From a virus, in IMG/VR virus record IMGVR_UViG_2030936005_000025, positions 44,451 through 108,450 of that record: a DNA stretch of 64,000 nucleotides; one strand, written 5' to 3'. The translations under genes were made by a program, and so were the position numbers. The notes under the pieces were generated by a model. That model was not told the DNA's origin. It saw nothing but the letters and a program-made list of their open reading frames with translations, and made no database searches. Of the stretch, positions 2-45,400 are shown in pieces; positions within the stretch are counted from its first letter, which is position 1; every line of letters begins with the position of its first letter.

Positions 2-3000
2 GTTAAGTTAGATTCAGGTCAATGGCTCTGCTACAGTGTACGTTCTGCGGATACTCAAATCCAAGTTACGTTCACGTATCAGCTCACTTACAAAGGCAAC
101 TTGCTCACCATGAAGCAAGATGTTCCGTTTGTGATTAAGCCGTTCACTGGTCAACCTACCGTTAGTGATGTTCAGGTTGTTAATGGGAAAGTATGGGATA
201 TCGGAAGTAAGATTCCGTTCACCATCAATATCAATGGCAATCCAGTACCGAGCACTTGGATCACAGCACTGACAGGAACCTCTGCCAATAACCGTGTTCA
301 AGTTACCAGTCTGGCAGAACCTTGGTATATCGTAGCGGGTAGTAAGGATGCTGCTGTTTCTGATACCGTGAGCTACGTAGCAACAGTCACCGATGGAACC
401 AATACCTGGACAGTTAAACAGGATGTGGTCTTCAACATCGCGAAATACGATGGAGTGGAACTCTCAGCCCGTATTCTGACGTCAGGTGGTGGTAACGCTG
501 AATTGCAAACGGTGTTCTATCCGTACAACGCAACCAGCATTGTGGGGATTATCTTCAATCTCTACTCTAAAGGTAGGTTGGTCGCTAATACGGGGATTGC
601 GAGTCTCAATGTAGGTAAAGGGCTCGTTGCTTCAGGAACAAGTGCATCTGGAGCCAATGCAACATGCAACATCAAAGGTAATAACACTGTTAGTGGAAAT
701 ACTGAAACGTCCATGACAGTTCAGTTGACCATTCGTGGATCCGCTGCAACAACAGAGGGTATCGACATTCTGACAGTGACCATTCCGGTGTTTATGGTTC
801 AGGGTACGGGTCAGTTGTTGGTTCACCCAAGAACAACGAAAGCCATGACAGGCAAATACGGCACGCCGGTTTCTCTTGACGCTTATCTCATTAAGTATGT
901 CAGTGAAGCAGGAAGTCGATTCGTTGATCTAACAACCGGTAACACTACTATTACGTTTGCCCCATCAGACGTTATTACCTTGGTCCCTGGTTCTATTACA
1001 GCTCAAGGCTATAAGGTCAACTTCGCATCTCGTCTGTACGCGGACACGGTGAAGGATGTCGTGGTAACGGTAACCAATGGCGGTGTTTCGAAAACTTACA
1101 CCTTGAACACAACGCAGTTGGCTTCTCCTGCTGATCAACCGGATGTGAAGGATAATAACGGTCAAACAGCAAGTGTCAACCAGTCTGGTGCAATGCCATT
1201 CAAGTTAGTTGATCCTGATACTCAGGAAGACGTAACCTCAAAAGCGACTATCTCTTCTATTGCTAGCAACGATTACATCGAGCTGGTTAACGGTAAGTGG
1301 TACGCTAAGAAGGACGTGGCAACTGACACCCACACCAACGTGACCTTTACCTTAACTTTGAATTATCGCGACAAAGATATCGGTATGGACGTTGTGGTTG
1401 ATTTCTTGATCAAACCGTTTGATGGGAAGTTTACTGTCACGGACAAGAAAGATATCACCGCTAAGGTGTGGGATAGAGGAACAGTTCCTCCATTTGGTCT
1501 CAGTGTAAACGGCAACCCAGTTCCAACTTCTTGGATTACAAGCTGGGAAACCTCGCCTACTGACACCTACGTAGCAGTTGCTGCAAATGGTTCATGGCAG
1601 GTTATTGCAGGCGATCAAACCAAAGGCGTCACTGTTACTGTTGGATATGCTGCGAACATTACTGTTCCGGGTGGGAATACCACTAAGAACGTAACGCAGG
1701 TTACTTTCAACATTAGTCAGTATGACGGTATTGAGTTCAAACTCAACCTGGCTAACCTTCAGGCAGGTAATAAAGAACTGCAAGCTATCTTCCTCACCTA
1801 TAATGCCAGCAGTACCAATGGCATTTATTTCGAAGGTCGATACCGCGGAGATCTTGTACCGAGTCCTATTGGTGTGTCGTTGAGTGGGGGTTATCTGAGA
1901 ATCGGTAACGGACCTATTAATGGTGCGTCTTCCGTTGCTTGGGCAGTTCAACCTTCCGGTGCTCCGGCTAGAGGCACAGCTGCCTGGACGGCGAGAATTA
2001 AGCGTGCAAGTAGTGCTGGTAACATTGAGAACTCAGATGTTGCTTCATTACCGATCCCAGCTTATTTCGTAGTAGGTGCTGGCGATATGTTCGTTCACAC
2101 TGGTACAACAAAAACAGCTTCGGGCAAGAAAGGTGATCAACTTGATCTTGTACTGAATATGTTCCGTTATTCCGGTACGCCGACGACCACAACCCTGACA
2201 GATTTGACCGCTGGCAGTACAACAGTTGAGTTCTCCCCTGCAAATGTGATTGAACTGGTTCCTGGTTCTATTACAGCGCATGGGTATAAGGTGCGTTTCA
2301 TCAACACCCTGTATCAAGACACAAATACCCAAGTTACCGCTACTGTGAAAACAGCATCAGGTAATGTAAGTTATGTGATTGATGTGACTCAGTTGGCTTC
2401 TCCTGCTGCACAGCCTGATGTGGTTGGTAATAACACACAGACTGCTGGCATCAACCAGACTGGCACCATGCCGTTTAAACTGGTAGATCCAGACACCCAA
2501 GAAGACGTCACTTCTGCCGCCACCGTTACTTCTGTCGACAGTAATCCTTATGTCGAGTGGGTTGACGGTAAATGGCGAGTGAAATCAGATGTTTCAGCGG
2601 ATACCCATTCCGATGTAACATTTAATCTGACGATCACTTACCGCGGCATCACCAGTGACATGCATGTTACCACGGACTTCCTGATTAAACCATTCGACGG
2701 TGTATTCACGTTTGGTAATGTCGAGCCGATCTCTGGTAACGTGTGGGATCGTGGTACTGCTATTGACATGGGTATTAAAGTCAACGGCAACGCGATCCCG
2801 GTAGATTGGATCACAGGTTATCTGGCGACTCCAGAAAGCAACTACGTTACTGTTGGAGCTAACGGTGTATGGCAGATTGTTGCGGGCAGTAAAGACGAAG
2901 CAATCACCGAAACTGTAGGTTACACAGCGACTGTTGCTGTTCCAGGAACCACCTCTTATCCAGCCACTGTTCAAGTGACATACAACATCGGTAAGTACGA

Positions 3001-4099
3001 TGGGGTTGAATTCAAACTTCGACTCACTAATCTGAACGCGGATGATGTGTTGTTTGGTCAGGCAGGATTGGCGGCTCGTGGTTATCTGGAAGGCAGGTAT
3101 CGTAATGATCTGATTGGTGGAACTTCAGGATATGGATGGACAGTAATCACTCGCGTGAACTTACATCCGACGACGCCGATTTCAGGTGTTAACCTCAGTG
3201 GGTCTTCTAAGATCTATGACTTTAATACTGTTGACGCGCCGGCTGCTCGGGCACAGAACGTGGTTCGTTTCGTTCGCCCTGGTGGTAAAGATCCTAAGAC
3301 TGATAACACTGCTGTTAAAGATGTTGACTACGTTGATATGGTTATTCCGATCACCACCTGGAAATCCGACACACTCGTAGCTGGTCAGACCCCAGATAAG
3401 TTTGAAGGTAAACTGGGTGATGTACTGGATGTGAGAGCCAACGCTTACTACAGTAGCACCAGACTCAGTCTTGACTCCAGTGTACTTCAAATCACGCCTG
3501 ACGCCTCCCTGGGTATTGAGATCGTTCCTGACTCTATCACCGCGGATGGTTTCAAAGTGAGATTCGTTGCTGACGTAACAGAACAGACAACTGTCGCATC
3601 TGTTATCACGTACAAGTACACGAATGGATCTACTACTGGAACGGCTACCCCAGCGTTTACAGTGGTTCAGAATCCAGGAGATGTCAGTCCTGATGTTAAC
3701 GCCACCGGCACCATGGCACCTATGAAATACGGCGAGACTGGTAACATCGTCTTGACGGGCACTGTAGGTTCTGATGCACTGGCTGGTAAAGTCACCTTCG
3801 TTCCTGAAAGCAGTGACAATAAGGGACTGGTCACGTTCGGTGATCCTGTTAACAATGAAGACGGTACAGTTTCTATTCCTGTTACCGCTGACAAAGTTGG
3901 TAAAGATAACCTGACTATCCATATTACGGTAAATGGTGCAACCGGAAATGTCTCTGGCAAGGATTATTTGGATGTCATCGTCGCAGCTGAAGTTACCTAT
4001 GGTGATCTCGGTGAAGGTGATGGCTTTGAAACCAATGCCACAGGCACGAGCGGTGAACCTGTAACTGTTATTCAATGGACGTACATGCCAGAAGAGTAA
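2..4099 (+). CDS. Giant Ig-like repeat virion fibre/decoration protein (5'-truncated by window)
   Basis: Frame is open from base 2 (VKLDSGQW...), so the 101 start is not real. T/V/G/N/S-rich beta protein with an internal repeat of about 425 aa (1275 bp; e.g. cagttggcttctcctgctg at ~1115 and ~2390, xFxIKPFxG three times). Confidence 0.75.
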   Translation, partial: VKLDSGQWLCYSVRSADTQIQVTFTYQLTYKGNLLTMKQDVPFVIKPFTGQPTVSDVQVVNGKVWDIGSKIPFTININGNPVPSTWITALTGTSANNRVQVTSLAEPWYIVAGSKDAAVSDTVSYVATVTDGTNTWTVKQDVVFNIAKYDGVELSARILTSGGGNAELQTVFYPYNATSIVGIIFNLYSKGRLVANTGIASLNVGKGLVASGTSASGANATCNIKGNNTVSGNTETSMTVQLTIRGSAATTEGIDILTVTIPVFMVQGTGQLLVHPRTTKAMTGKYGTPVSLDAYLIKYVSEAGSRFVDLTTGNTTITFAPSDVITLVPGSITAQGYKVNFASRLYADTVKDVVVTVTNGGVSKTYTLNTTQLASPADQPDVKDNNGQTASVNQSGAMPFKLVDPDTQEDVTSKATISSIASNDYIELVNGKWYAKKDVATDTHTNVTFTLTLNYRDKDIGMDVVVDFLIKPFDGKFTVTDKKDITAKVWDRGTVPPFGLSVNGNPVPTSWITSWETSPTDTYVAVAANGSWQVIAGDQTKGVTVTVGYAANITVPGGNTTKNVTQVTFNISQYDGIEFKLNLANLQAGNKELQAIFLTYNASSTNGIYFEGRYRGDLVPSPIGVSLSGGYLRIGNGPINGASSVAWAVQPSGAPARGTAAWTARIKRASSAGNIENSDVASLPIPAYFVVGAGDMFVHTGTTKTASGKKGDQLDLVLNMFRYSGTPTTTTLTDLTAGSTTVEFSPANVIELVPGSITAHGYKVRFINTLYQDTNTQVTATVKTASGNVSYVIDVTQLASPAAQPDVVGNNTQTAGINQTGTMPFKLVDPDTQEDVTSAATVTSVDSNPYVEWVDGKWRVKSDVSADTHSDVTFNLTITYRGITSDMHVTTDFLIKPFDGVFTFGNVEPISGNVWDRGTAIDMGIKVNGNAIPVDWITGYLATPESNYVTVGANGVWQIVAGSKDEAITETVGYTATVAVPGTTSYPATVQVTYNIGKYDGVEFKLRLTNLNADDVLFGQAGLAARGYLEGRYRNDLIGGTSGYGWTVITRVNLHPTTPISGVNLSGSSKIYDFNTVDAPAARAQNVVRFVRPGGKDPKTDNTAVKDVDYVDMVIPITTWKSDTLVAGQTPDKFEGKLGDVLDVRANAYYSSTRLSLDSSVLQITPDASLGIEIVPDSITADGFKVRFVADVTEQTTVASVITYKYTNGSTTGTATPAFTVVQNPGDVSPDVNATGTMAPMKYGETGNIVLTGTVGSDALAGKVTFVPESSDNKGLVTFGDPVNNEDGTVSIPVTADKVGKDNLTIHITVNGATGNVSGKDYLDVIVAAEVTYGDLGEGDGFETNATGTSGEPVTVIQWTYMPEE

Positions 4100-4131
4100 T
4101 AGATCGTATCCCTTAATAAAGGACTTTATGA

Positions 4132-5703
4132 ATGACCACCGCTAACCAAGTGTTAAGCGTTAACGGTCAGAAGTTAAGTAATAAGGATCCTGATTTGACA
4201 ATCACTCTGGACGATCATCCGGTCGTCCAGATTTCTTCTATTCAAGAGGAGTCCATTACGTACTCCTTCTTGACGAATGTCGAAGCAGAAATCTCTTACA
4301 ACCTTAACCTGACATTTACGTACAAGAACAAATATCGCCTTGTTGTTCCGATGACCTTTGTTCACAAAGTGTTCACGGAGAACTTCGTGATTGCACCTGA
4401 GTTGTCAGAACTCTCGACAACCACTGATCATGACTTCACCCTTCTGTTTGATGCAACGCTAAACGGAACTGGGAATGCTCGTGACATCTCACTGGACACC
4501 GCTAACTCGACATTGAGTGCAGGCATCAGTGTGGTTTCTCAAGCAGCACAGAGTGACACGCAATACCAGGTTGTCCTGAATGCGCAGTCACCGGTTGAAG
4601 CCGATAACACCTTCTTGTTCTTAAGAGAAGGGAAAACCGCCGATGGTAAAGAAGGCAGTGACTTTGCGAAAGCTGTGATTAAACTGGATATCAAGAATGG
4701 TATCAACACAGCCACGTGGGATCCTAACTTCAAAGCCGTGGGTGCAGATCGAAACTACATCCCAATTACCGTTGTTGATAAAGACGGTAATCCGCTGGAA
4801 GGTGTCACCATTTCTTCACTGAACATTACTGCTAATCCGCGTAATGGGGTGTTGAATGGATACAGTAACACGCTCTTAGCAGGGGATGACGGTCAACCGG
4901 GTAGTTACAAAATCCGTGTTGATTTGGATCATTTGCCAGGAACAATTACTGTTAAGTTGGCACTCTCCTTTAACGGGACTACTTTCACTATTCCTGATGA
5001 AGTCTTTACGGTCCCAGCCGGTCCTTATACCGTGACCGTGGATCCAGCTTCTGTTGTTCAAGATCAAACGGTTGATCTGAGTCTGAACATTATTCAAGCA
5101 CGTTATGGTGACAGTAACCACAAGTTCACTGGTCGCATTACTGCAATTGAATCAACTGAAGATTCGATTACTGTTAACACTCCAACGCCTATCACGATTA
5201 CCGATGGTGTGGCTTCTATTAATGTCACCGGTAAGAATCCTGCTGAAAGTACCATTGCGGCCACTGCACAGGAATATGATAGCAATATGGATGTGTGGCG
5301 TGAAGCCGGTGAAATTCACATTTATGTGAAGACTATCGCTGCGCCTGATGTTGAACCAGAAATCCAAGATGGCACCACAGACATGACTCTGAATCTGTGG
5401 GATACACAAGCTATCAATTATAAAGTAATGGCAGGTGAAACGGATATCACGTCTAGCGTTACGAATGTCACGGATCAAACTGATCCTAACGACGCGATCG
5501 AGCTGGTTAAAGTCGACGATACCCACTGGGGCTTCCAAGCCGTTAAAGCACGCACTGATGAGGATCTGGTTATCGATGCTATGGTAGATGTTCACGTTAT
5601 GTATCAAGGTACCGAGCGTGTCATCCCAATGACTATCGATGTGGTAGTGAAAGCCAATACTACTGGCATTCCTGAAAACCGCTTCAACGTCGAAATGCTT
5701 TAA
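4132..5703 (+). CDS. Ig-like repeat virion structural protein (fibre adaptor candidate)
   Basis: 523 aa, acidic and beta-rich, SD-like aaagga upstream. Last domain is homologous to the last domain of 5755-6999; ends IPENRFNVEML. Confidence 0.7.
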   Translation: MTTANQVLSVNGQKLSNKDPDLTITLDDHPVVQISSIQEESITYSFLTNVEAEISYNLNLTFTYKNKYRLVVPMTFVHKVFTENFVIAPELSELSTTTDHDFTLLFDATLNGTGNARDISLDTANSTLSAGISVVSQAAQSDTQYQVVLNAQSPVEADNTFLFLREGKTADGKEGSDFAKAVIKLDIKNGINTATWDPNFKAVGADRNYIPITVVDKDGNPLEGVTISSLNITANPRNGVLNGYSNTLLAGDDGQPGSYKIRVDLDHLPGTITVKLALSFNGTTFTIPDEVFTVPAGPYTVTVDPASVVQDQTVDLSLNIIQARYGDSNHKFTGRITAIESTEDSITVNTPTPITITDGVASINVTGKNPAESTIAATAQEYDSNMDVWREAGEIHIYVKTIAAPDVEPEIQDGTTDMTLNLWDTQAINYKVMAGETDITSSVTNVTDQTDPNDAIELVKVDDTHWGFQAVKARTDEDLVIDAMVDVHVMYQGTERVIPMTIDVVVKANTTGIPENRFNVEML

Positions 5704-5712
5704 TTTTAAATA

Positions 5713-5740
5713 GAACCTCTTCGGGGGTTCATTCTTTATT
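5713..5740 (+). terminator. UUCG hairpin / possible intrinsic terminator
   Basis: gaacctc-ttcg-ggggttc followed by attctttatt. Confidence 0.55.
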
Positions 5741-5754
5741 ACATAGAGGTAAAA

Positions 5755-6999
5755 ATGGATAAGCAACTTACATTGCTTGAAGGTCAGAGTGGTAGCATCA
5801 AAGTCAAACCTACTTTCGAAGGCAAGGCAGCTGCAGATAAGGTTGAACTGTCGCAGTCACTGAGTAACGCGGATATTCTCCAACTGACCTCGGCACCTGT
5901 TGCCAGTGAGAACAACACTGTTGCTACTGTCGCCGTCAAAGTGGGTGCGATTGCTGATCTGACCGGTAACCTGGTGTTTAAATACACCGGCAATGAATCT
6001 GAAGTCGAAAACATCGGCATCAGTACCAAAGAGATCGGCATTAAAGTTAATGCTGCTCAACTGGCGACCCAAGAAGCTCCCTCACCAACCAAGTTCAAGT
6101 ACACGCCGGGTGCCCAGCTTGTTATCAACGTTCTGTATAAGAATGGCGATGAGAATCTGGAAAACACCGATCCACATCTGAATCTGTCTGTGGGTGACTC
6201 TGTGTTGGAACTGGTGAGTCGTGATGCGACTGGCGTGACTTTGAAAATCAAAGACGACGCTGATCCAGCCACTGCTCCAGGTGTTCTGCAACTTCTGGCA
6301 ACTTACTACTCCGGTAGTTCAAGCACTGACTTGACTCTGGTTGCTAAACCAAACCTGACTATCGAGACCACTCCACTGAGTCTGACCAATGGTGAAAACC
6401 ATGCGTTCCCAGTTGTGGTTAAGAAGGGTGATGACGATATTACTTCTTCTATCACCAACATTCAGGCCACCGCGGATGAATACTTCACTGTTGATGCCAA
6501 CGGTAACATCACTGTTATCAAAGCAGATACCGCTGAAGTTCAACGTACCATCCACTACACCTTCGACTACACCGAAGATGGTCTGACCTGGACCTACACT
6601 GCTGACGTTACTGCGACTATCGCAGCGACCGAAACTCCTGACCAGTTCTCGCTGACCGATGTGTCAACGCCACTGACGATGGATCTGTGGGCTAAACAGA
6701 CCCTGAGCTACAAAGTGATGGACGGCGAAACTGATGTTACTTCAAGCGTGACCTCTGTGACTGTTAGCAATGCTGACGCGATCAAAGACAAGTTCGAAGT
6801 TACTCAGGACGGCGTTACCACGACCTTCCAGTCTGTTAGTTCTAGCAGCACTGAGCAGGTTACCGCGACAGCTAACGTTGTTATCGCTGGTACCTACAAC
6901 GGTCAAGAGTTCAGCCTCCCTGCTGACATCAATCTGGTTACTAACGTTAACGACGGTAGCATCCCTACCAACCGTTTCGACGTTCAGATGGATCAGTAA
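5755..6999 (+). CDS. Ig-like repeat virion structural protein (major fibre subunit candidate)
   Basis: 414 aa with about four beta domains, SD agaggt, codon usage typical of high expression (ctg/act/gct/aac). Ends IPTNRFDVQMDQ. Confidence 0.7.
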   Translation: MDKQLTLLEGQSGSIKVKPTFEGKAAADKVELSQSLSNADILQLTSAPVASENNTVATVAVKVGAIADLTGNLVFKYTGNESEVENIGISTKEIGIKVNAAQLATQEAPSPTKFKYTPGAQLVINVLYKNGDENLENTDPHLNLSVGDSVLELVSRDATGVTLKIKDDADPATAPGVLQLLATYYSGSSSTDLTLVAKPNLTIETTPLSLTNGENHAFPVVVKKGDDDITSSITNIQATADEYFTVDANGNITVIKADTAEVQRTIHYTFDYTEDGLTWTYTADVTATIAATETPDQFSLTDVSTPLTMDLWAKQTLSYKVMDGETDVTSSVTSVTVSNADAIKDKFEVTQDGVTTTFQSVSSSSTEQVTATANVVIAGTYNGQEFSLPADINLVTNVNDGSIPTNRFDVQMDQ

Positions 7000-7009
7000 T
7001 TTAACGAGC

Positions 7010-7042
7010 GAGAGGGTTCCGAAAGGAGCCTTCTCCTCTTTA
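7010..7042 (+). terminator. GAAA hairpin / partial terminator
   Basis: gagagggttcc-gaaa-ggagccttctc followed by ctcttt. Confidence 0.55.
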
Positions 7043-7057
7043 ACATAAGGAGGTAAT

Positions 7058-7948
7058 GTGAACGCTAAAGTCAATATTCTAGAAGGACAGACCGGACATG
7101 TAAAAGTGACCCCTACGTTTGAAGGAAAGTCTGCACTTGGTAAAGTAGAAATTGATTGGAGTAACACAGATATGCGAGGGATGGTGATATTGAATAAATC
7201 AATGTTGCCGATAGACAATGCCAATGCGTATTTGGTCTTGACTGCATTAGCTACTTCTCAAGGCACGGGAAAGGTGGTGTTTAAGTACGTGGGAAGTAAA
7301 TCAGATGTAGAGAATGTAGGGACCGCCACTAAGACGGTTGACATTACGGTTTCTCCTGCGGTATTAAATGTAGTGAGTGTTTCTCCTACTTATATTAAAT
7401 GGATTCCAGGACAGGAAACCGATATAGCAATAACCTGGGTTAATGGAACGCAACCTGTATTAGCAACTAACCCATTACTCGACCTATCCACAACCGGAGA
7501 CAACATTACGATTGTTTCCCGTAGTGAAACAGGAATAAGAGTGAAGGTTAATAGTAATGCTAATGCAACGGCACTTCCGTTAAAAGAACAAGTCATTGTG
7601 GCCAAGTATTATTCTGGTCAGGCAAAGACGGTTTTGAACTACGCATTGAAACCTGCTTTAACCATTACGTTGAATGGAACCATTAACTTGAAAGGTGTGG
7701 GTGCTAAGAGCCCGTTCCCGTTTAAGATTATGGACGGAACCAAAGACGTTACCAAGCTTGTTAAAAATATCAAAGCCTCTGACAGTTATCTTAAGTTTAA
7801 TGATGATGGGAGTTTCGTTGTCATTAAGGTGGATCTATTGGCTGTGGTCAGAACGGTGACTTACACGTTCGATTACGAAGTGAATGGATTAGTGTGGAGC
7901 TATACCACCAAAGCAACTGTTACTATAGGCAACCTCATTAATCTTTGA
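7058..7948 (+). CDS. Ig-like structural protein, truncated paralog of 5755-6999
   Basis: GTG start with SD aggagg. Aligns by eye with the first ~290 aa of 5755-6999 (LEGQxGxxKVxPTFEGK, VFKY, YYSG, YTFDY...GLxWxYT) and lacks its last domain. Confidence 0.7.
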   Translation: MNAKVNILEGQTGHVKVTPTFEGKSALGKVEIDWSNTDMRGMVILNKSMLPIDNANAYLVLTALATSQGTGKVVFKYVGSKSDVENVGTATKTVDITVSPAVLNVVSVSPTYIKWIPGQETDIAITWVNGTQPVLATNPLLDLSTTGDNITIVSRSETGIRVKVNSNANATALPLKEQVIVAKYYSGQAKTVLNYALKPALTITLNGTINLKGVGAKSPFPFKIMDGTKDVTKLVKNIKASDSYLKFNDDGSFVVIKVDLLAVVRTVTYTFDYEVNGLVWSYTTKATVTIGNLINL

Positions 7949-7999: not shown

Positions 8000-8051
8000 C
8001 AAAAAAAATAAAGACTAAACTAGAGAACCTACCCATTGGGTAGGTTCTCTA
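8000..8051. terminator. Terminator at convergent junction
   Basis: 14-bp stem tagagaacctaccc-att-gggtaggttctcta with a CA8TAAAG tract (U-tract on the - strand). Confidence 0.75.
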
Positions 8052-8061
8052 TTATGTTTGT

Positions 8062-8580
8062 TTAATCGAACTTGTAGTACGGTGAGGATAGAGATTCTTT
8101 CGAACCTATTATGAAGTTATAACACTCGGTGCTTTTGTTAAACTTCAATGCAATAGGAAGAATCGGTTTCGCCACTCGGGTATCGACATACGTCAACAAT
8201 TCCCCTTTGAAGGTTTCGACTTTATATCGACCCTCATCACCTGACACATGCTCTTTAGGATGGTCGTACCATTTAGGATACGTGTCCTCCAGTAGCAACT
8301 CACATCCAGATAACGAATCGATGTCGTCCAGAAGTTCGCGCGCTTCGAGCATGTTCATCCCCATATCACAACCAGAGACTTTCAGATATGGATCACCTTT
8401 CTCTGGCGTAACTCGATAGATGAAAGGGTCTTTACTGAAAGACAATGGCTTAACGTCTGGGCTGTGGATCGCTTCAACCAACCAGATTGACAAAGCCGTC
8501 AGATAGAACTTATCCAGACTACGTGTTTGAAGTGGACCACCGATCTGAATTTCAAACAGAGTAATAACTTTAATTCCCAC
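8062..8580 (-). CDS. Hypothetical protein, tandem paralog family A
   Basis: SD aggag. Shares a hydrophobic helix and LPxALxx...YKF motifs with 9514-9996. Confidence 0.7.
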   Translation of the reverse strand: MGIKVITLFEIQIGGPLQTRSLDKFYLTALSIWLVEAIHSPDVKPLSFSKDPFIYRVTPEKGDPYLKVSGCDMGMNMLEARELLDDIDSLSGCELLLEDTYPKWYDHPKEHVSGDEGRYKVETFKGELLTYVDTRVAKPILPIALKFNKSTECYNFIIGSKESLSSPYYKFD

Positions 8581-8968: not shown

Positions 8969-9517
8969 TTAAATAGCTTGTTGAATTTTGTCGAACTCAT
9001 AAACCCATGACGGGTCTTGGAATCCTTTCGACGGTGTTCCAATCGCGCCAAAGTAAACGGGAGCTTGTTCACTTGGAATCATGGCAATATCCCAGGCGAT
9101 CTCACGATGATCGGGGATCCCCACAACCCACATACCGTCTTTGGTTTGAGTCAAGGTTCCGGATCGGACAACACCTTCACCTTTAGGATCCAACGTCTTG
9201 ATAGGAGGATGAATACTCTTACCATAGATGTTGATTTCAGTAAGAAGTTCTTCCACTTCGTCACGACTCAGATCAATCAGGGCGTTACACTCCACCGATG
9301 ACTTTGTCGTAAAGACACATTTCTCTTCGCCATTAACTTCTCTTAATTCAACACCAACTAAATCGCAATAGTCGTTAAAATAGAGAGTCTTTGGCTTATG
9401 ACCTAAAAGGTAACAAGCAAGGAAGATAGATAATAACGTTAACTGCTCGTCATTAAGATTTGCACGATAGTTACTTGTCTCTAACACATGAAGAGTTCTG
9501 GTCCAAATGGTATTCAT
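8969..9517 (-). CDS. Hypothetical protein, tandem paralog family A
   Basis: EQLTLLSIFLACYLLGHKPKTLYFN resembles EQLIAFIIWSVLAYHEKPPSLVFN of the neighbouring gene. Confidence 0.7.
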   Translation of the reverse strand: MNTIWTRTLHVLETSNYRANLNDEQLTLLSIFLACYLLGHKPKTLYFNDYCDLVGVELREVNGEEKCVFTTKSSVECNALIDLSRDEVEELLTEINIYGKSIHPPIKTLDPKGEGVVRSGTLTQTKDGMWVVGIPDHREIAWDIAMIPSEQAPVYFGAIGTPSKGFQDPSWVYEFDKIQQAI

Positions 9518-9996
9518 ACTTGACCTCTGTGGAGTGCTTTGAACTTATAACGAGAGAAGTTACTCTTACCCATAAACTTCTCACCGCAAATAACGTAGAA
9601 CTCGTTTTCCTTTTTATCCAGCTGTAACGCCACAGGAAGCAAGCTCTCGTTGTTTTTGTCGAAGTAACCCAATGTGTTATTGACATAACGAACGCTGTTT
9701 ACAGCGTGTTCTGGGGTACTCATTTCCGATGGGAATGTGAAGTAAGGCATGAGTGTGTGCATTTCAGATGTTAACTCGATTACACGACTCACATTTAAGC
9801 AACCTTCACAGTCACCGATACGAATCACTTCACCCTCACGCCAAATGCGGAACTGATTGAAAACCAGACTCGGTGGCTTTTCATGGTAAGCGAGAACAGA
9901 CCAGATGATAAACGCAATCAACTGTTCCATGGTGAATTCGACTTTCTCATCACGAGGCATGTCCAATTCATATTTGGTAATACGGGAAAGTAACAT
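9514..9996 (-). CDS. Hypothetical protein, tandem paralog family A
   Basis: 4-nt overlap with the next gene; shares the family motifs. Confidence 0.7.
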   Translation of the reverse strand: MLLSRITKYELDMPRDEKVEFTMEQLIAFIIWSVLAYHEKPPSLVFNQFRIWREGEVIRIGDCEGCLNVSRVIELTSEMHTLMPYFTFPSEMSTPEHAVNSVRYVNNTLGYFDKNNESLLPVALQLDKKENEFYVICGEKFMGKSNFSRYKFKALHRGQV

Positions 9997-42463: not shown

Positions 42464-45400
42464 TTAATTATCGTAAAGCTCACTACGAGACAGGAACTTA
42501 TACGTACCCTGTTCAGTAATGGATCCAGATGATACCGGGACACCCATATCACGCGTACGTGTTAATGGGAAACCTGAGATACTGAAGCTTTGACGACGAT
42601 CGATGGTAACAATGCCGAAATCATCAGTGGTAATGATCGCAACAAGAACATGTCCAGCATTGTGATTACGTAAGATCTTGGTAATCTCATAGATCGCCAT
42701 TGAACCGTTCATAACACAGTACATGTAGAACTTCTGGTTACGATACACATCGGTAAGGTCACGCAGATCCCAGTTGGTTGCTTTCGCAATCATGTTCTGA
42801 CCGTTAAAGGTAACGGAGATATCGGCGTTAACAAACAGTGACCAGTTACCCTCAACATACGTTGCACCGTACATAACTAACCAAGGTGCAGGAATCGTTG
42901 TCGGCTGATAAATGTCTGTACGACCATCCCAAGGCATCTGCAAGTTCATTGCAGCACCTGACCAGTTCGCACCCACACCGGCAAGCCAACCCAACTGAGC
43001 ATTGGCACACAGCTGCCAAGAATACTCATAGTTAAATGCTTGACCTTGTCGTGTTCCCACAGTGGCTTCAGTGATTCCATTCTTACGACGGCGGAAGATC
43101 ACGCGGTTAGTTGTACCGTTACCCGAGATCTGTAACTGTAAGCCAGAGAACCAGGCGATCTCCATGTTCTGGGCTCCCTCACTTTCGAAGTCTAATACTT
43201 CTGTGTGACGGAACTTGGTTTGGAGTCCACCGGTATACGTGATGTTCCATTGGTTATTGATATCAAGCGTAGCCCAGTTATTGGCCAGAATGTTTGAATC
43301 GTTACCAGGGTTCAGTTTAGAGTTGACAAACTGAGTAGTGGTAAATGGATATTGCATCCCCACCACTTTCAGAACACGGATACCATCAGCACCAGTTGAA
43401 GCCACATCCCAAGTAAACGTACCAACGATCATGCGGATAGACGAAGGGCTACCCGTGAGGTGATATGTCGCTGACCAGAAGGAGAAGACCTGATCACCAC
43501 CTGTACCCGGTTGTCCACCAATATAGAAGTCAACGCAAAGGTCAATCAGGCTATTGGCATGTGAGCCCAATGCGGACATCACCATGTCAAGATAAACAGA
43601 ACGTGGAATACGAACTTGTTTAGCTTTATTAGGGCGGGCATTCAAGAACTTACCAACGGTATCGAGAGTGTAGTCCATATCAAGGTTGATGATGATACTG
43701 TTATCTGACTCGGTGGTAATGTCTTTCATGATCCCATTGGCATCGGCTTGTTGTGTCCAGTTAAACGGAGCACCTGGGCTACGATGGATACCTTTACGCC
43801 ACCAACTGAATCCTGTACCTGCTTTACTCTGTGCGGTCTTACGACCTGGTCGGTTGGTAAAGAATGTGTTCACATTCATACCGGTACACTGACCAAAGTT
43901 GGAGTTCGTCTTACGACCACGGATAGGGAAAGGAATGTAATCAGATTGCAGAGAAGAACGCTGATCATAACCATCGTCCGTTCCACCTTCAGTAATACGA
44001 TAGAAGGTCTGCTGAGTCTGTGCTTCATTTTCAGCGGTAAAGATTTCAATCGGATACTGACGCACACCGGTGGTCAATGCATACAAATCAGAGAACGCAC
44101 GTGGGAATCCTGCCACACCAAACGGTGACTTCATTCGGAATGGAACCTGCCACAGTGATCTTAAACCGGCATCACTGGTCCAGTGGTTAGGATAGAACAT
44201 GTATTCATAGTCCCTGTCCTTATTCCCATCACGGTTAATCTGCCAAGTACGGAAGTTATACGGTGGTGTGCCTGTCTGGTCACTTCGCATAGCGATCGCA
44301 CCAAAACCAGCAAGATAGGTGATACAGGTATTAACATACCCAATCCACATCCCATCAATGTCACCAGCGACAATGTAGTCACTCTGTTGCTGAGTTAATC
44401 CAACGTACTTACCGGTGCCACCTGTGGTGTCAACCATGTCACCCGTTGGCATACTCCATGTACTTGCCAGTGTCAAGATGTTATTCTCGACATCCCAATC
44501 ATAGTTAATGATGATATAGAAACCTGCTGAACGCTGGTCTGGGGTATTCGCATACGGAGAGATCATCAACTTGAGACGTGCAAGTTTCGGGTTGTTCGGG
44601 TTAGGAACAATGATCCAACCTTTCTTACGGTTCAGGTAACATTGTTTAACCGGGGAGTTGAACTTTATCCCATATTCAGTAGCCAGCGTTTTTGTTGCGT
44701 CAGTAAACTGCATACGCTGAGGAATAAAGGTGTTCTTGCCAGTACGACGTTCACGCCACAGTGTGTCGTAAGTCACGTTAACACGGGTAAAGGTGATAGA
44801 CGTTTTACTGTCATCGTTTAAGTCCGCATATGGGAAGCGGAACATCACGGTCTGCCAGTGGTCAGCGGCGAAACTGTTTGAGTAGTTAGCTTCATCATCA
44901 CCTTGGAAGGAAGAGGCGTCAGCAAACAGATAAACCCAGTTACCCACTTTAGAGATCTTGTACGTACCTGGACGCATCAAGCTACCGGTCAGGGATTGAA
45001 CCTGATTAAGAACCGCTGTCATATTGACAGGCTTCATGGTGTGACTTGAAGGGTCAAAGGTTGAGTTAGCCGCACAGATCCACCAGTTACCGTCACCCAG
45101 GATAGCAGGACCCGTTGGGTCAGGAACGTTGCCCACCATGAGGACAGTACCGTCAGAACCATCAATCACGTAGTTCGGTGTCTTACCGGCTGCGGTGATA
45201 ACAGGGTGCTGATACTGAACATAAGTATCTTGCCACGGTGTACGGTTTGGATCACGGTCAGTCATGTCAGTCTTGTAGGCATAATACAAGTTCTTAACAC
45301 GACCATCAAAAGCACGGAACAAACACACCAACCAACCATTACCTTCCAGGTTCATGGCAGAGTTTTCTGAGTCACCACCCAGTCCTTCAAAGGAACCGGT

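Follow-up and report, generated by a model that had tools for sequence, protein, structure and literature searches.

Candidate tail-to-head strand donation between separately encoded pieces of a jumbo phage fibre

Introduction

The window analysed here, a stretch of 64,000 nucleotides (positions 44,451 to 108,450 of IMG/VR virus record IMGVR_UViG_2030936005_000025), opens on the 3′ end of a giant fibre gene that is followed by three smaller genes (4132, 5755 and 7058), and this locus of an uncultured giant phage raises the question of how such separately encoded products might be held together. Our argument starts from direct observations, namely the homologies among these proteins, their terminal tails and heads, the conservation of these termini and the gene order across relatives. 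Based on these observations and on structural models, we put the probability at roughly 0.6 that the giant protein and the products of the three following genes line up as consecutive parts of a single thin fibre made of Ig-like beads, in which the tail of each part plugs into the head of the next.

Layout of the fibre locus

The fibre operon and its boundaries comprise the following features (window coordinates):

2..4099, + strand: C-terminal 1,365 codons of the giant fibre gene (full extent G000:C1:34555-48549; product of 4,664 aa), with tandem Ig-like beads and a head-profile match in the last domain
4132..5703, + strand: adaptor 4132, an ORF of 523 aa
5713..5730, + strand: terminator-like hairpin between 4132 and 5755 (–12.3 kcal/mol, z –2.55)
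5755..6999, + strand: middle subunit 5755, an ORF of 414 aa, modelled by AlphaFold2 as four beta domains with the head at one end and the tail at the other
7006..7038, + strand: strong hairpin located before the GTG start of 7058 and its Shine-Dalgarno sequence (–24.5 kcal/mol, z –4.65)
7058..7948, + strand: head-only protein 7058 (putative "cap"), 296 aa, GTG start, without a tail and homologous to aa 1-290 of 5755
8021..8051, no strand assigned: bidirectional terminator with a 14-pair stem, closing the fibre operon

The three complete ORFs, including the GTG start of 7058, are as the initial annotation had described them, and its remarks on their properties held up as well. The contrast between a basic 7058 and an acidic 5755 corresponds to pI values of 9.2 and 4.2 (4.3 for 4132), and 7058 indeed lies behind a hairpin. 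The high-expression codons attributed to 5755 were recovered as a codon index of 0.66, which ranks 15th among 270 ORFs, alongside proteins of the nuclear shell and the head and PhuZ, versus ranks of 169 for 4132 and 260 for 7058.

A shared C-terminal domain ending in a conserved tail

As had been proposed, the C-terminal domain and short tail of 4132 recur in 5755: the last ~135 aa are common to both (36% identity, E 9e-13), and both proteins end in IP.NRF.V.M. The corresponding segments, together with a second type of tail found on the giant protein, are:

5356..5700, + strand: putative donor domain of 4132, with the tail TTGIPENRFNVEML (5659-5700) at its end; C-domain profile iE 1.2e-21, the match ending 1 aa from the C-terminus
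6646..6942, + strand: putative donor domain of 5755 (aa 298-396), delimited by the AlphaFold2 model and the C-domain profile
6943..6996, + strand: tail of 5755, NVNDGSIPTNRFDVQMDQ (aa 397-414), conserved and modelled as coil
4001..4096, + strand: second tail type, GF.T..G....PVT.IQ....P.., at the C-terminus of the giant protein (pLDDT 52-68)

The tail G.IP.NRF.V is near-invariant and located 3-4 residues before the stop codon. It is the best conserved segment of 5755 (at least 90% conservation at 9 of the 14 positions of aa 397-410), yet it appears as a low-confidence coil in the monomer AlphaFold2 model (pLDDT 61, then 44). All 20 strong matches to the C-domain profile end at most 2 aa from the C-terminus, and an exhaustive search of 1.84 billion representatives with this domain returned 32 matches, the 30 real ones all carrying it at their extreme C-terminal end. 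Across all loci, a regular expression for the tail matched 27 times, comprising 20 true tails (each 3-4 aa before the stop) and seven loose matches in other contexts. The second tail type is kept at the C-terminal end of the upstream protein in the ORFs of 10 relatives.

Free heads and their in-chain counterparts

The first domain that 5755 and 7058 had been said to share reflects a real homology, but one whose extent had been understated, as it covers 290 aa and thereby the whole of 7058 (38% identity, E 4e-56). No significant similarity was found between 4132 and 7058 (best E 0.15). These pairwise homologies confirm that 4132 has a tail only, 5755 a head and a tail, and 7058 a head only. The head and its in-chain counterparts are located as follows:

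5755..6054, + strand: head of 5755 (aa 1-100), the putative acceptor; begins with the A′ strand and contains the motif PTFEGK (pLDDT 52-85 versus 88-96 for the other domains)
3695..3715, + strand: in-chain leading strand VNATGTM before the last domain of the giant protein; a DSSP strand at residues 117-123 of the AlphaFold2 model of its last 250 aa
3725..3967, + strand: final domain of the giant protein, a homologue of the free heads (head profile iE 1.4e-10; pLDDT 89-95)
4372..4695, + strand: leading strand FTENFVIA of 4132 with the internal head-like domain (aa 107-188; head profile iE 7e-5)

The head proteins begin with MDKQLTLLEG or MNAKVNILEG, right at the A′ strand and without a hydrophobic leader, and free heads start 4-8 residues ahead of the L.EGQ.G strand. 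The head profile matches two internal domains, domain 2 of 4132 and the last one of the giant protein, and each is preceded by a leading segment that is absent from the free heads. This agrees with the earlier remark that free heads lack the leading strand of their internal homologues, the profile matches starting only after it and VNATGTM being modelled as a strand. In the alignment, VNATGTM takes the position of the trans tail. Moreover, OBP_205 carries IPPVNFDV directly ahead of an internal head-like domain; in this single chain, which reads VNVIPPVNFDVIGNSKVNLRVGEQ, tail and head occur together naturally, as judged by sequence. Modelled alone, the head of 5755 (D1) still forms a sandwich (pLDDT 52-85), so the head may fold without a partner. 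In the adaptor 4132, aa 1-82 form a conserved N-terminal domain, which is followed by Ig-like beads that vary and then by the C-terminal domain with its tail.

Gene order in related phages

The logic of tail and head modules is kept in 12 genomes (the window phage and 11 others), and this recurrence in 11 other genomes shows that the pattern is not due to chance. The order tail-only, head plus tail, head-only recurs in AH04, OBP and three uncultured genomes. No middle gene is present in 3 of the 12 genomes (Survivor, Sureiya and N1M2), and no cap gene in SXP01, pEt-SU and Kc263, where the conserved tail is nevertheless retained and the head profile detected no free head other than that of their own middle protein. 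Relatives also possess a short middle form of 224-230 aa. Throughout the 12 genomes, the tail gene precedes the head gene unless a head-plus-tail gene ends the operon, and every free head has a tail standing before it. The relatives' genes are all annotated as hypothetical. DNA scans for further genomic contexts yielded only three additional uncultured genomes, the remainder being chance matches. With regard to virion morphology, no tail fibres were visible according to the N1M2 paper, and the Kc263 paper mentions "visible fibers" and nothing more.

Covarying residues of tails and heads

Covariation between tails and heads was assessed over 18 junctions (14 alignment rows plus 4 rows read separately). 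Tail residue –1 and the residue following PTF in the head form an R/E pair in 17 of these junctions and an E/R pair in the remaining one, with no mismatched pairs. The E/R junction is that of Serratia phage Sureiya, in which the tail PKPEFDVEII is followed by the head PTFRN of the next gene; this charge swap is a single lineage event. PEF tails were found in three separate 50%-identity clusters. No genomic context was found for P0039 and P0040, two proteins with PEF tails, and the PKPEF DNA pattern gave one chance match in a polymerase-like ORF.

At the adaptor-to-middle joints, Glu at tail position +3 accompanies Lys or Arg at head position 18 in 11 of the 12 first joints, and at the middle-to-cap joints Gln at +3 accompanies Thr or Val at position 18 in all six. 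These E/K and Q/T pairings go with classes of orthologous junctions and so represent few independent events.

Proposed joint and chain

In the joint that we propose, the free tail G.IP.NRF.V of an upstream protein would provide the missing first β-strand of the N-terminal head of the next protein. The tail would run antiparallel along the end of head strand B, with its Arg beside the Glu of PTFEG and its Phe packed on the Phe of the same motif. Since the tail would supply the strand that the next head is missing, the fibre pieces are likely joined end to end, presumably in the order giant protein, 4132, 5755, 7058, with the tail-less 7058 ending the chain. The fibre itself is assumed to be a virion appendage for adhesion. 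Such strand donation is likely, as it fits the synteny, the terminal position of the tails, the cis equivalents, the disordered tail and the one charge swap. The initial annotation had combined strand donation with a logic of initiator, homopolymer and cap; the tail-to-head part of this proposal fits every indirect test applied here, whereas the initiator/homopolymer/cap part is only one of two readings.

If these joints are real, nucleus-forming jumbo phages of this family assemble an adhesion fibre of great length from interchangeable parts that are encoded separately, the connection being a plug of ten residues and an Ig socket that lacks a strand. Such joints would account for the swapping, between phages, of adaptors, middle pieces and caps that differ widely in length (62 to 4,123 aa) without redesign of the fibre. 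They would also amount to a small, portable protein connector with a specificity code, consisting of the R/E and E/K pairs, that can be tested.

Copy number of the middle piece and other explanations

As 5755 has both a head and a tail, it could add repeatedly, and its addition more than once before 7058 is a tentative possibility that forms the least supported part of the model. Its extended version, in which 5755 would be the major subunit of a chaperone-free and usher-free cytoplasmic homopolymer of four-bead units, growing from the tip of the giant fibre until 7058 caps it, seems unlikely to us. Were 5755 to add to itself, donor-strand polymerisation would reach viruses, beyond bacterial and archaeal pili, and a true homopolymer would mean hair-like virion fibres of variable length and, to our knowledge, would be without precedent among viruses as a donor-strand polymer.

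The same joints might instead build a defined chain with one copy each of the giant protein, 4132, 5755 and 7058, each tail being tuned to the next head and 5755 not polymerising, which we regard as doubtful. The joint-specific residue pairs (Glu with Lys/Arg18, Gln with Thr/Val18) speak for such single copies and against repetition, as do the three genomes that manage without a middle gene and the codon bias of the middle gene, which among seven relatives recurs in AH04 only and is not raised in OBP, SXP01, pEt-SU or Kc263. The codon rank of 5755 in the window phage, far ahead of its neighbours, points the other way, as does the tail kept in the three capless phages, where their own head is the only free partner. 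The heads of 5755 and 7058 being close paralogues likewise sits poorly with single copies, and the hairpin ahead of the cap gene favours repetition.

More improbable is that tails and heads make no contact at all, the genes being mosaic paralogues produced by domain shuffling and the protein tail docking elsewhere, for instance on the capsid, the phage tail, another fibre or an assembly factor. Modular exchange is evident at this locus, 5755 consisting of a 7058-like part (aa 1-290) plus the C-domain, and the short middle form of relatives is in line with it. However, shuffling without contact leaves unexplained the swap from R/E to E/R between two polypeptides, the strict placement of tail genes before head genes in 12 genomes and the tail-like in-chain strand before internal head-like domains. 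Finally, although 4132 and 5755 are in the same frame and only 51 nt apart, bypass of the stop codon by readthrough or frameshifting to give one polypeptide was rejected as extremely improbable, given the two in-frame stops in the spacer (TAA, and TAA again two codons on), the separate Shine-Dalgarno sequence and start of each downstream gene (5755 and 7058), the different frames of 5755 and 7058 and of AH04 gp196 and gp195, and the lack of any tail-head fusion among 30 family representatives or in a search for longer homologues.

Relation to known systems

In chaperone-usher pili (Fim, Pap), which form a series of adaptor, major subunit and terminator, another subunit completes an Ig fold that lacks its C-terminal G strand. 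The donated strand belongs to an N-terminal extension, and assembly depends on a chaperone in the periplasm and on an usher. Unlike in these pilins, the conserved peptide of the proposed joint lies at the C-terminus, and profile alignment and DSSP identify the absent strand as the first (A) one; no fimbrial Pfam family matched at E up to 1. The genes scanned at the locus were those of the fibre and two lying upstream. In the type V pili of Bacteroidia (FimA/Mfa1), which follow a logic of anchor, stalk and tip, a C-terminal donor strand replaces the missing N-terminal strand of the next subunit; these subunits are lipoproteins whose N-terminal strand is cut off by a protease outside the cell. 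As for a C-terminal strand inserted into the next subunit, which is predicted for the fibre proteins, the observations are a free and conserved tail at the C-terminus and a single charge swap covarying between tail and head. Unlike type V pilins, they have no lipoprotein or other signal peptide and encode no N-terminal strand to be proteolysed, and their assembly would be cytoplasmic.

The initial statement that nothing of the kind had been described in phages is too strong, because in Lactococcus phage Tuc2009 the C-terminal hairpin of BppU completes the β-sheet of BppA domain 2 in a crystal structure, according to passages of the structural report (PMC4742702). There, as in our proposal, the C-terminal extension of one adhesion-device protein completes the β-sandwich of its partner, giving a composite titin-like Ig domain, but the same passages describe a 25-residue hairpin that docks on the C-terminal domain of its partner, in a baseplate where this joint has one fixed place (PMC4742702). 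The joint proposed here would involve a single strand of ~10 residues on an N-terminal domain, in serial joints and with plug and socket in one protein. The TasA fibres of Bacillus subtilis, the subject of a paper on donor-strand exchange (PMC9674648), likewise use strand donation between globular subunits without an usher. TasA differs in being a non-viral, single-domain secreted matrix protein with an N-terminal donor.

Searches of the four fibre proteins against Pfam and PHROGs gave nothing above threshold; no PHROG family matched at E up to 0.01, and no homology to BppU or BppA was detected. A PDB sequence search with profile A1 gave no matches, and no paper listed in literature searches described such a phage fibre in its title or the opening of its abstract. 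The Pfam Big families stayed below the gathering score (Big_1, 16.7 bits versus a cut-off of 34.9), and Big_3_5 matched 2 of 13 heads (best E 0.0013). In the AlphaFold2 models, the bead strings are made of beta-sandwich domains, the top Foldseek matches of bead pairs being cadherin strings, intimin D00-D0, InvE and titin Z1Z2; the tandem Ig-like proteins of the intimin/invasin type are single polypeptides, unlike the separately encoded pieces of this fibre.

Terminal modules of the three fibre ORFs

The adaptor (4132), middle (5755) and cap (7058) ORFs were present as described in the initial annotation, and the gene upstream of 4132 was found to be one 4,664-aa ORF (referred to as the giant). 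The C-terminal domain and tail ascribed to both 4132 and 5755 were recovered: over the last ~135 residues, up to and including the closing IP.NRF.V.M, the two proteins are 36% identical (E 9e-13). Homology between the N-terminal parts of 5755 and 7058 was likewise borne out, although it was not restricted to the first domain: the alignment took in residues 1–290 of 5755 and all of 7058 (38% identity, E 4e-56), and 5755 therefore corresponds to a 7058-like body followed by a C-terminal module. Comparison of 4132 with 7058 revealed no significant similarity, and within its own genome 5755 matched only these three places. The acidic and basic character noted for 5755 and 7058, respectively, agreed with predicted pI values of 4.3, 4.2 and 9.2 for 4132, 5755 and 7058. 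The GTG start of 7058 was indeed preceded by a Shine-Dalgarno sequence and a hairpin (–24.5 kcal/mol, z –4.65), and a weaker terminator-like hairpin is located 3′ of 4132.

An AlphaFold2 model of 5755 (15-row alignment) contained four beta domains with a mean pLDDT of 86, and its Foldseek matches were tandem Ig-like strings only, such as cadherins.

Predicted domains of 5755 (pLDDT read per 10-residue block; one common range for D2–D4)
Residues 1–100: D1 (head), pLDDT 52–85
Residues 103–197: D2, pLDDT 88–96
Residues 200–290: D3, pLDDT 88–96
Residues 298–396: D4, pLDDT 88–96
Residues 397–414: tail, coil, pLDDT 61 then 44

The tail was the best conserved part of the protein, with at least 90% conservation at 9 of 14 positions in 397–410 (alignment A1), against 28 of 104 positions for D4 and 11 of 292 for D1–D3, a comparison that is rough because short homologues are partly misaligned across D1–D3.

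Free heads lack a leading segment

A profile of the free heads matched the last domain of the giant (iE 1.4e-10), domain 2 of 4132 (iE 7e-5) and, more weakly, internal domains of the giants of relatives. Every internal match started after a leading segment, which upheld the earlier observation that this segment is absent from free heads, where only M and 3–7 residues precede L.EGQ.G. These leading segments are tail-like (e.g. WDGVTFIADS, SVRFKVT, FTENFVIA); in OBP_205, a protein of the relative OBP, the segment reads VNVIPPVNFDVIGNSKVNLRVGEQ, versus the trans form NDGSIPTNRFDVQ...stop / M..K..L.EGQ. Around aa 505–530 of the same protein, the internal stretch VNVIPPVNFDVIGNSKVNLRVGEQKTLNFYPTINGEG has the look of a tail-head joint that occurs naturally within a single chain.

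Modelling of the last 250 aa of the giant (AlphaFold2, only 3 rows) placed the in-chain head-like domain at pLDDT 89–95, with intimin D00–D0 as best fold match. In this domain, VNATGTM (model residues 117–123) formed an additional first strand and strand B (131–140) was unbroken, whereas strand B of 5755 D1 was interrupted at K18–P19. Going by Ig topology rather than by model coordinates, we infer pairing of the first strand with the terminal part of strand B. The interpretation that fits best is a putative plug-and-socket joint linking one fibre protein to the next, with a probability of roughly 0.6.

Conservation and gene order of the module

The virus record holding the window (positions 44451–108450 of 264,203 bp; rated complete) has Erwinia phage AH04 as its closest cultured relative (~80% DNA identity, 12% of query covered), while the same module is found in the more distant OBP, Survivor, Sureiya/Yubaba, N1M2, SXP01, pEt-SU and Kc263. 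Across 12 genomes, including uncultured virus genomes (UViG), the genes were arranged as follows.

Gene arrangements
Adaptor (tail), middle (head and tail), cap (head): the window, AH04, OBP, UViG_3300045943
Giant with its own C-terminal donor domain and tail, middle, cap: UViG_3300010002_000006, UViG_3300031419_000002
Adaptor, cap, without a middle gene: Survivor, Sureiya, N1M2
Adaptor, middle, without a cap: SXP01, pEt-SU, Kc263

In N1M2, the ORF 3′ of the adaptor tail (gp159, L008 7658–7846) has only 62 aa, covering little beyond the beginning of a head domain, and may be a minimal cap.

Strong matches to a profile of the C-domain (the C-terminal donor domain) ended at most 2 residues from the C-terminus in 20 of 20 cases. 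A phmmer search with this domain against 1.84 billion representatives yielded 32 proteins, two of which (P0050 and P0058) were rejected as unrelated repeat proteins. The other 30 ranged from 95 to 4,123 aa, and all carried the module at the extreme C-terminal end. P0041 (201 aa) consists of an adaptor N-domain and a donor domain, and middle forms of 224–230 aa of a head and a donor domain; such minimal forms show a system made up of connector modules with optional beads.

Covariation between tails and heads

The residue preceding the invariant Phe of the tail (position –1) was compared with the one following Phe in the head motif PTF-x. The pair was R/E in 17 of 18 tail-to-next-head junctions from 12 genomes (four rows read by eye; Yubaba left out, being identical to Sureiya over the domain) and E/R in the remaining one, with no R/R or E/E pairs among them. 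The E/R junction belongs to Sureiya, in which the tail PKPEFDVEII is followed by PTFRN in the head of the next gene. PEF tails also occur in P0039 and P0040, from separate 50%-identity clusters, whose neighbouring genes were looked for and not found. By in-chain alignment, one covarying position lies where the first strand starts and the other where strand B ends, so that antiparallel pairing would bring the two side by side.

Another residue pair was correlated by class of junction: tail +3 Glu was accompanied by Lys/Arg18 of the head at 11 of the 12 first joints (the exception being one Thr/Lys), and tail +3 Gln by Thr/Val18 of the head at all six middle-to-cap joints. Because these classes are also orthologous groups, the covariation amounts to perhaps three independent events; it is suggestive, short of statistical proof.

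Does the middle protein repeat?

If the joint is real, repeated addition of 5755, as initially proposed, stands at somewhat below even odds. Plug and socket both lie on this one protein, and its high-expression codons were confirmed: by an index contrasting C with T as third base in six codon pairs that end in a pyrimidine, 5755 ranked 15th among 270 crude ORFs, like the most abundant proteins, whereas its operon neighbours were average or low (giant 101, 4132 169, 7058 260). The most codon-biased genes matched the following PHROG families.

Codon-biased genes outside the window (positions on the source virus record)
112898–115054: major head protein
126313–127557: internal head protein
172160–174088: nuclear shell protein
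180747–181697: PhuZ tubulin

The source is therefore a nucleus-forming jumbo phage; this gene set marks it as a chimallivirus. However, the codon signal of the middle gene was found again only in AH04 (0.56 vs 0.36 and 0.34), being weak in UViG_3300010002 and absent in OBP, SXP01, pEt-SU and Kc263.

The strong hairpin ahead of the cap gene also fits repeated addition, as do the capless phages, which retain the tail: the head profile (A4) revealed no further free head in SXP01, pEt-SU or Kc263, retrieving nothing beyond the head of the middle protein itself and internal domains of giant ORFs, so that for the tail this head is the sole free partner. In Kc263, moreover, the tail of the middle protein has Glu, the type that matches its own Lys18 head. 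Against this, the adaptor-to-middle and middle-to-cap joints retain distinct residue pairs, and three genomes dispense with the middle gene.

Relation to known systems

Type V pili, in which a C-terminal donor meets a vacant N-terminal strand, appear to be the mechanistically nearest pilus system, although the phage module encodes neither a pro-strand nor a signal peptide, and no protease step; chaperone-usher pili differ from it in donor end and in missing strand. Among the papers listed for donor-strand and strand-complementation phage fibres, no title or abstract opening described such a fibre. To say that phages offer no precedent goes too far, as the principle has been solved in one case, Tuc2009 BppU-BppA, where a 25-residue C-terminal BppU hairpin "completes one of the beta-sheets" of BppA domain 2, yielding a composite titin-like domain (PMC4742702).

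Second junction type and flanking genes

A second junction type connects the giant to 4132 (window 4001–4386) and recurs at L001, L005 (OBP), L008 (N1M2), L009, L011 and L017. Its upstream side ends in a conserved GF.T.G.G...PVTLTQ..LP.; on the other side, an alignment of 8 adaptors gives the N-terminal pattern M.TLKQ...VNGQ.LSN.DP.LVITLD. The giant ORF of N1M2 contains both motifs, fused within a single chain (GFQTTGTGNYYELPTLIQSVLLGSTALANTDENLIIQIVD). The N-terminus of the adaptor appears to have a TL.Q strand of its own, so strand duplication or swap, rather than gap filling, may underlie this joint.

An internal GEIPTNRFNI in an unrelated family of ~280-aa ORFs from small viral and metagenome contigs (L020, L026, L030, L031) was taken as chance or convergence.

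Three adjacent minus-strand ORFs of 160–182 aa (window 8062–8580, 8969–9517 and 9514–9996) appear to be mutually paralogous, with the N-terminal pattern ...L..L.I.L..A.H.KP... in common and same-sized neighbours in AH04 (gp189–193). Directly upstream of the giant, after the RNR small-subunit gene, lies a 716-aa gene (L012 6284–8434; 32283–34433 of the source record) without a Pfam or PHROG match; AH04 has kept it as well (gp198), and it may be part of the fibre module.
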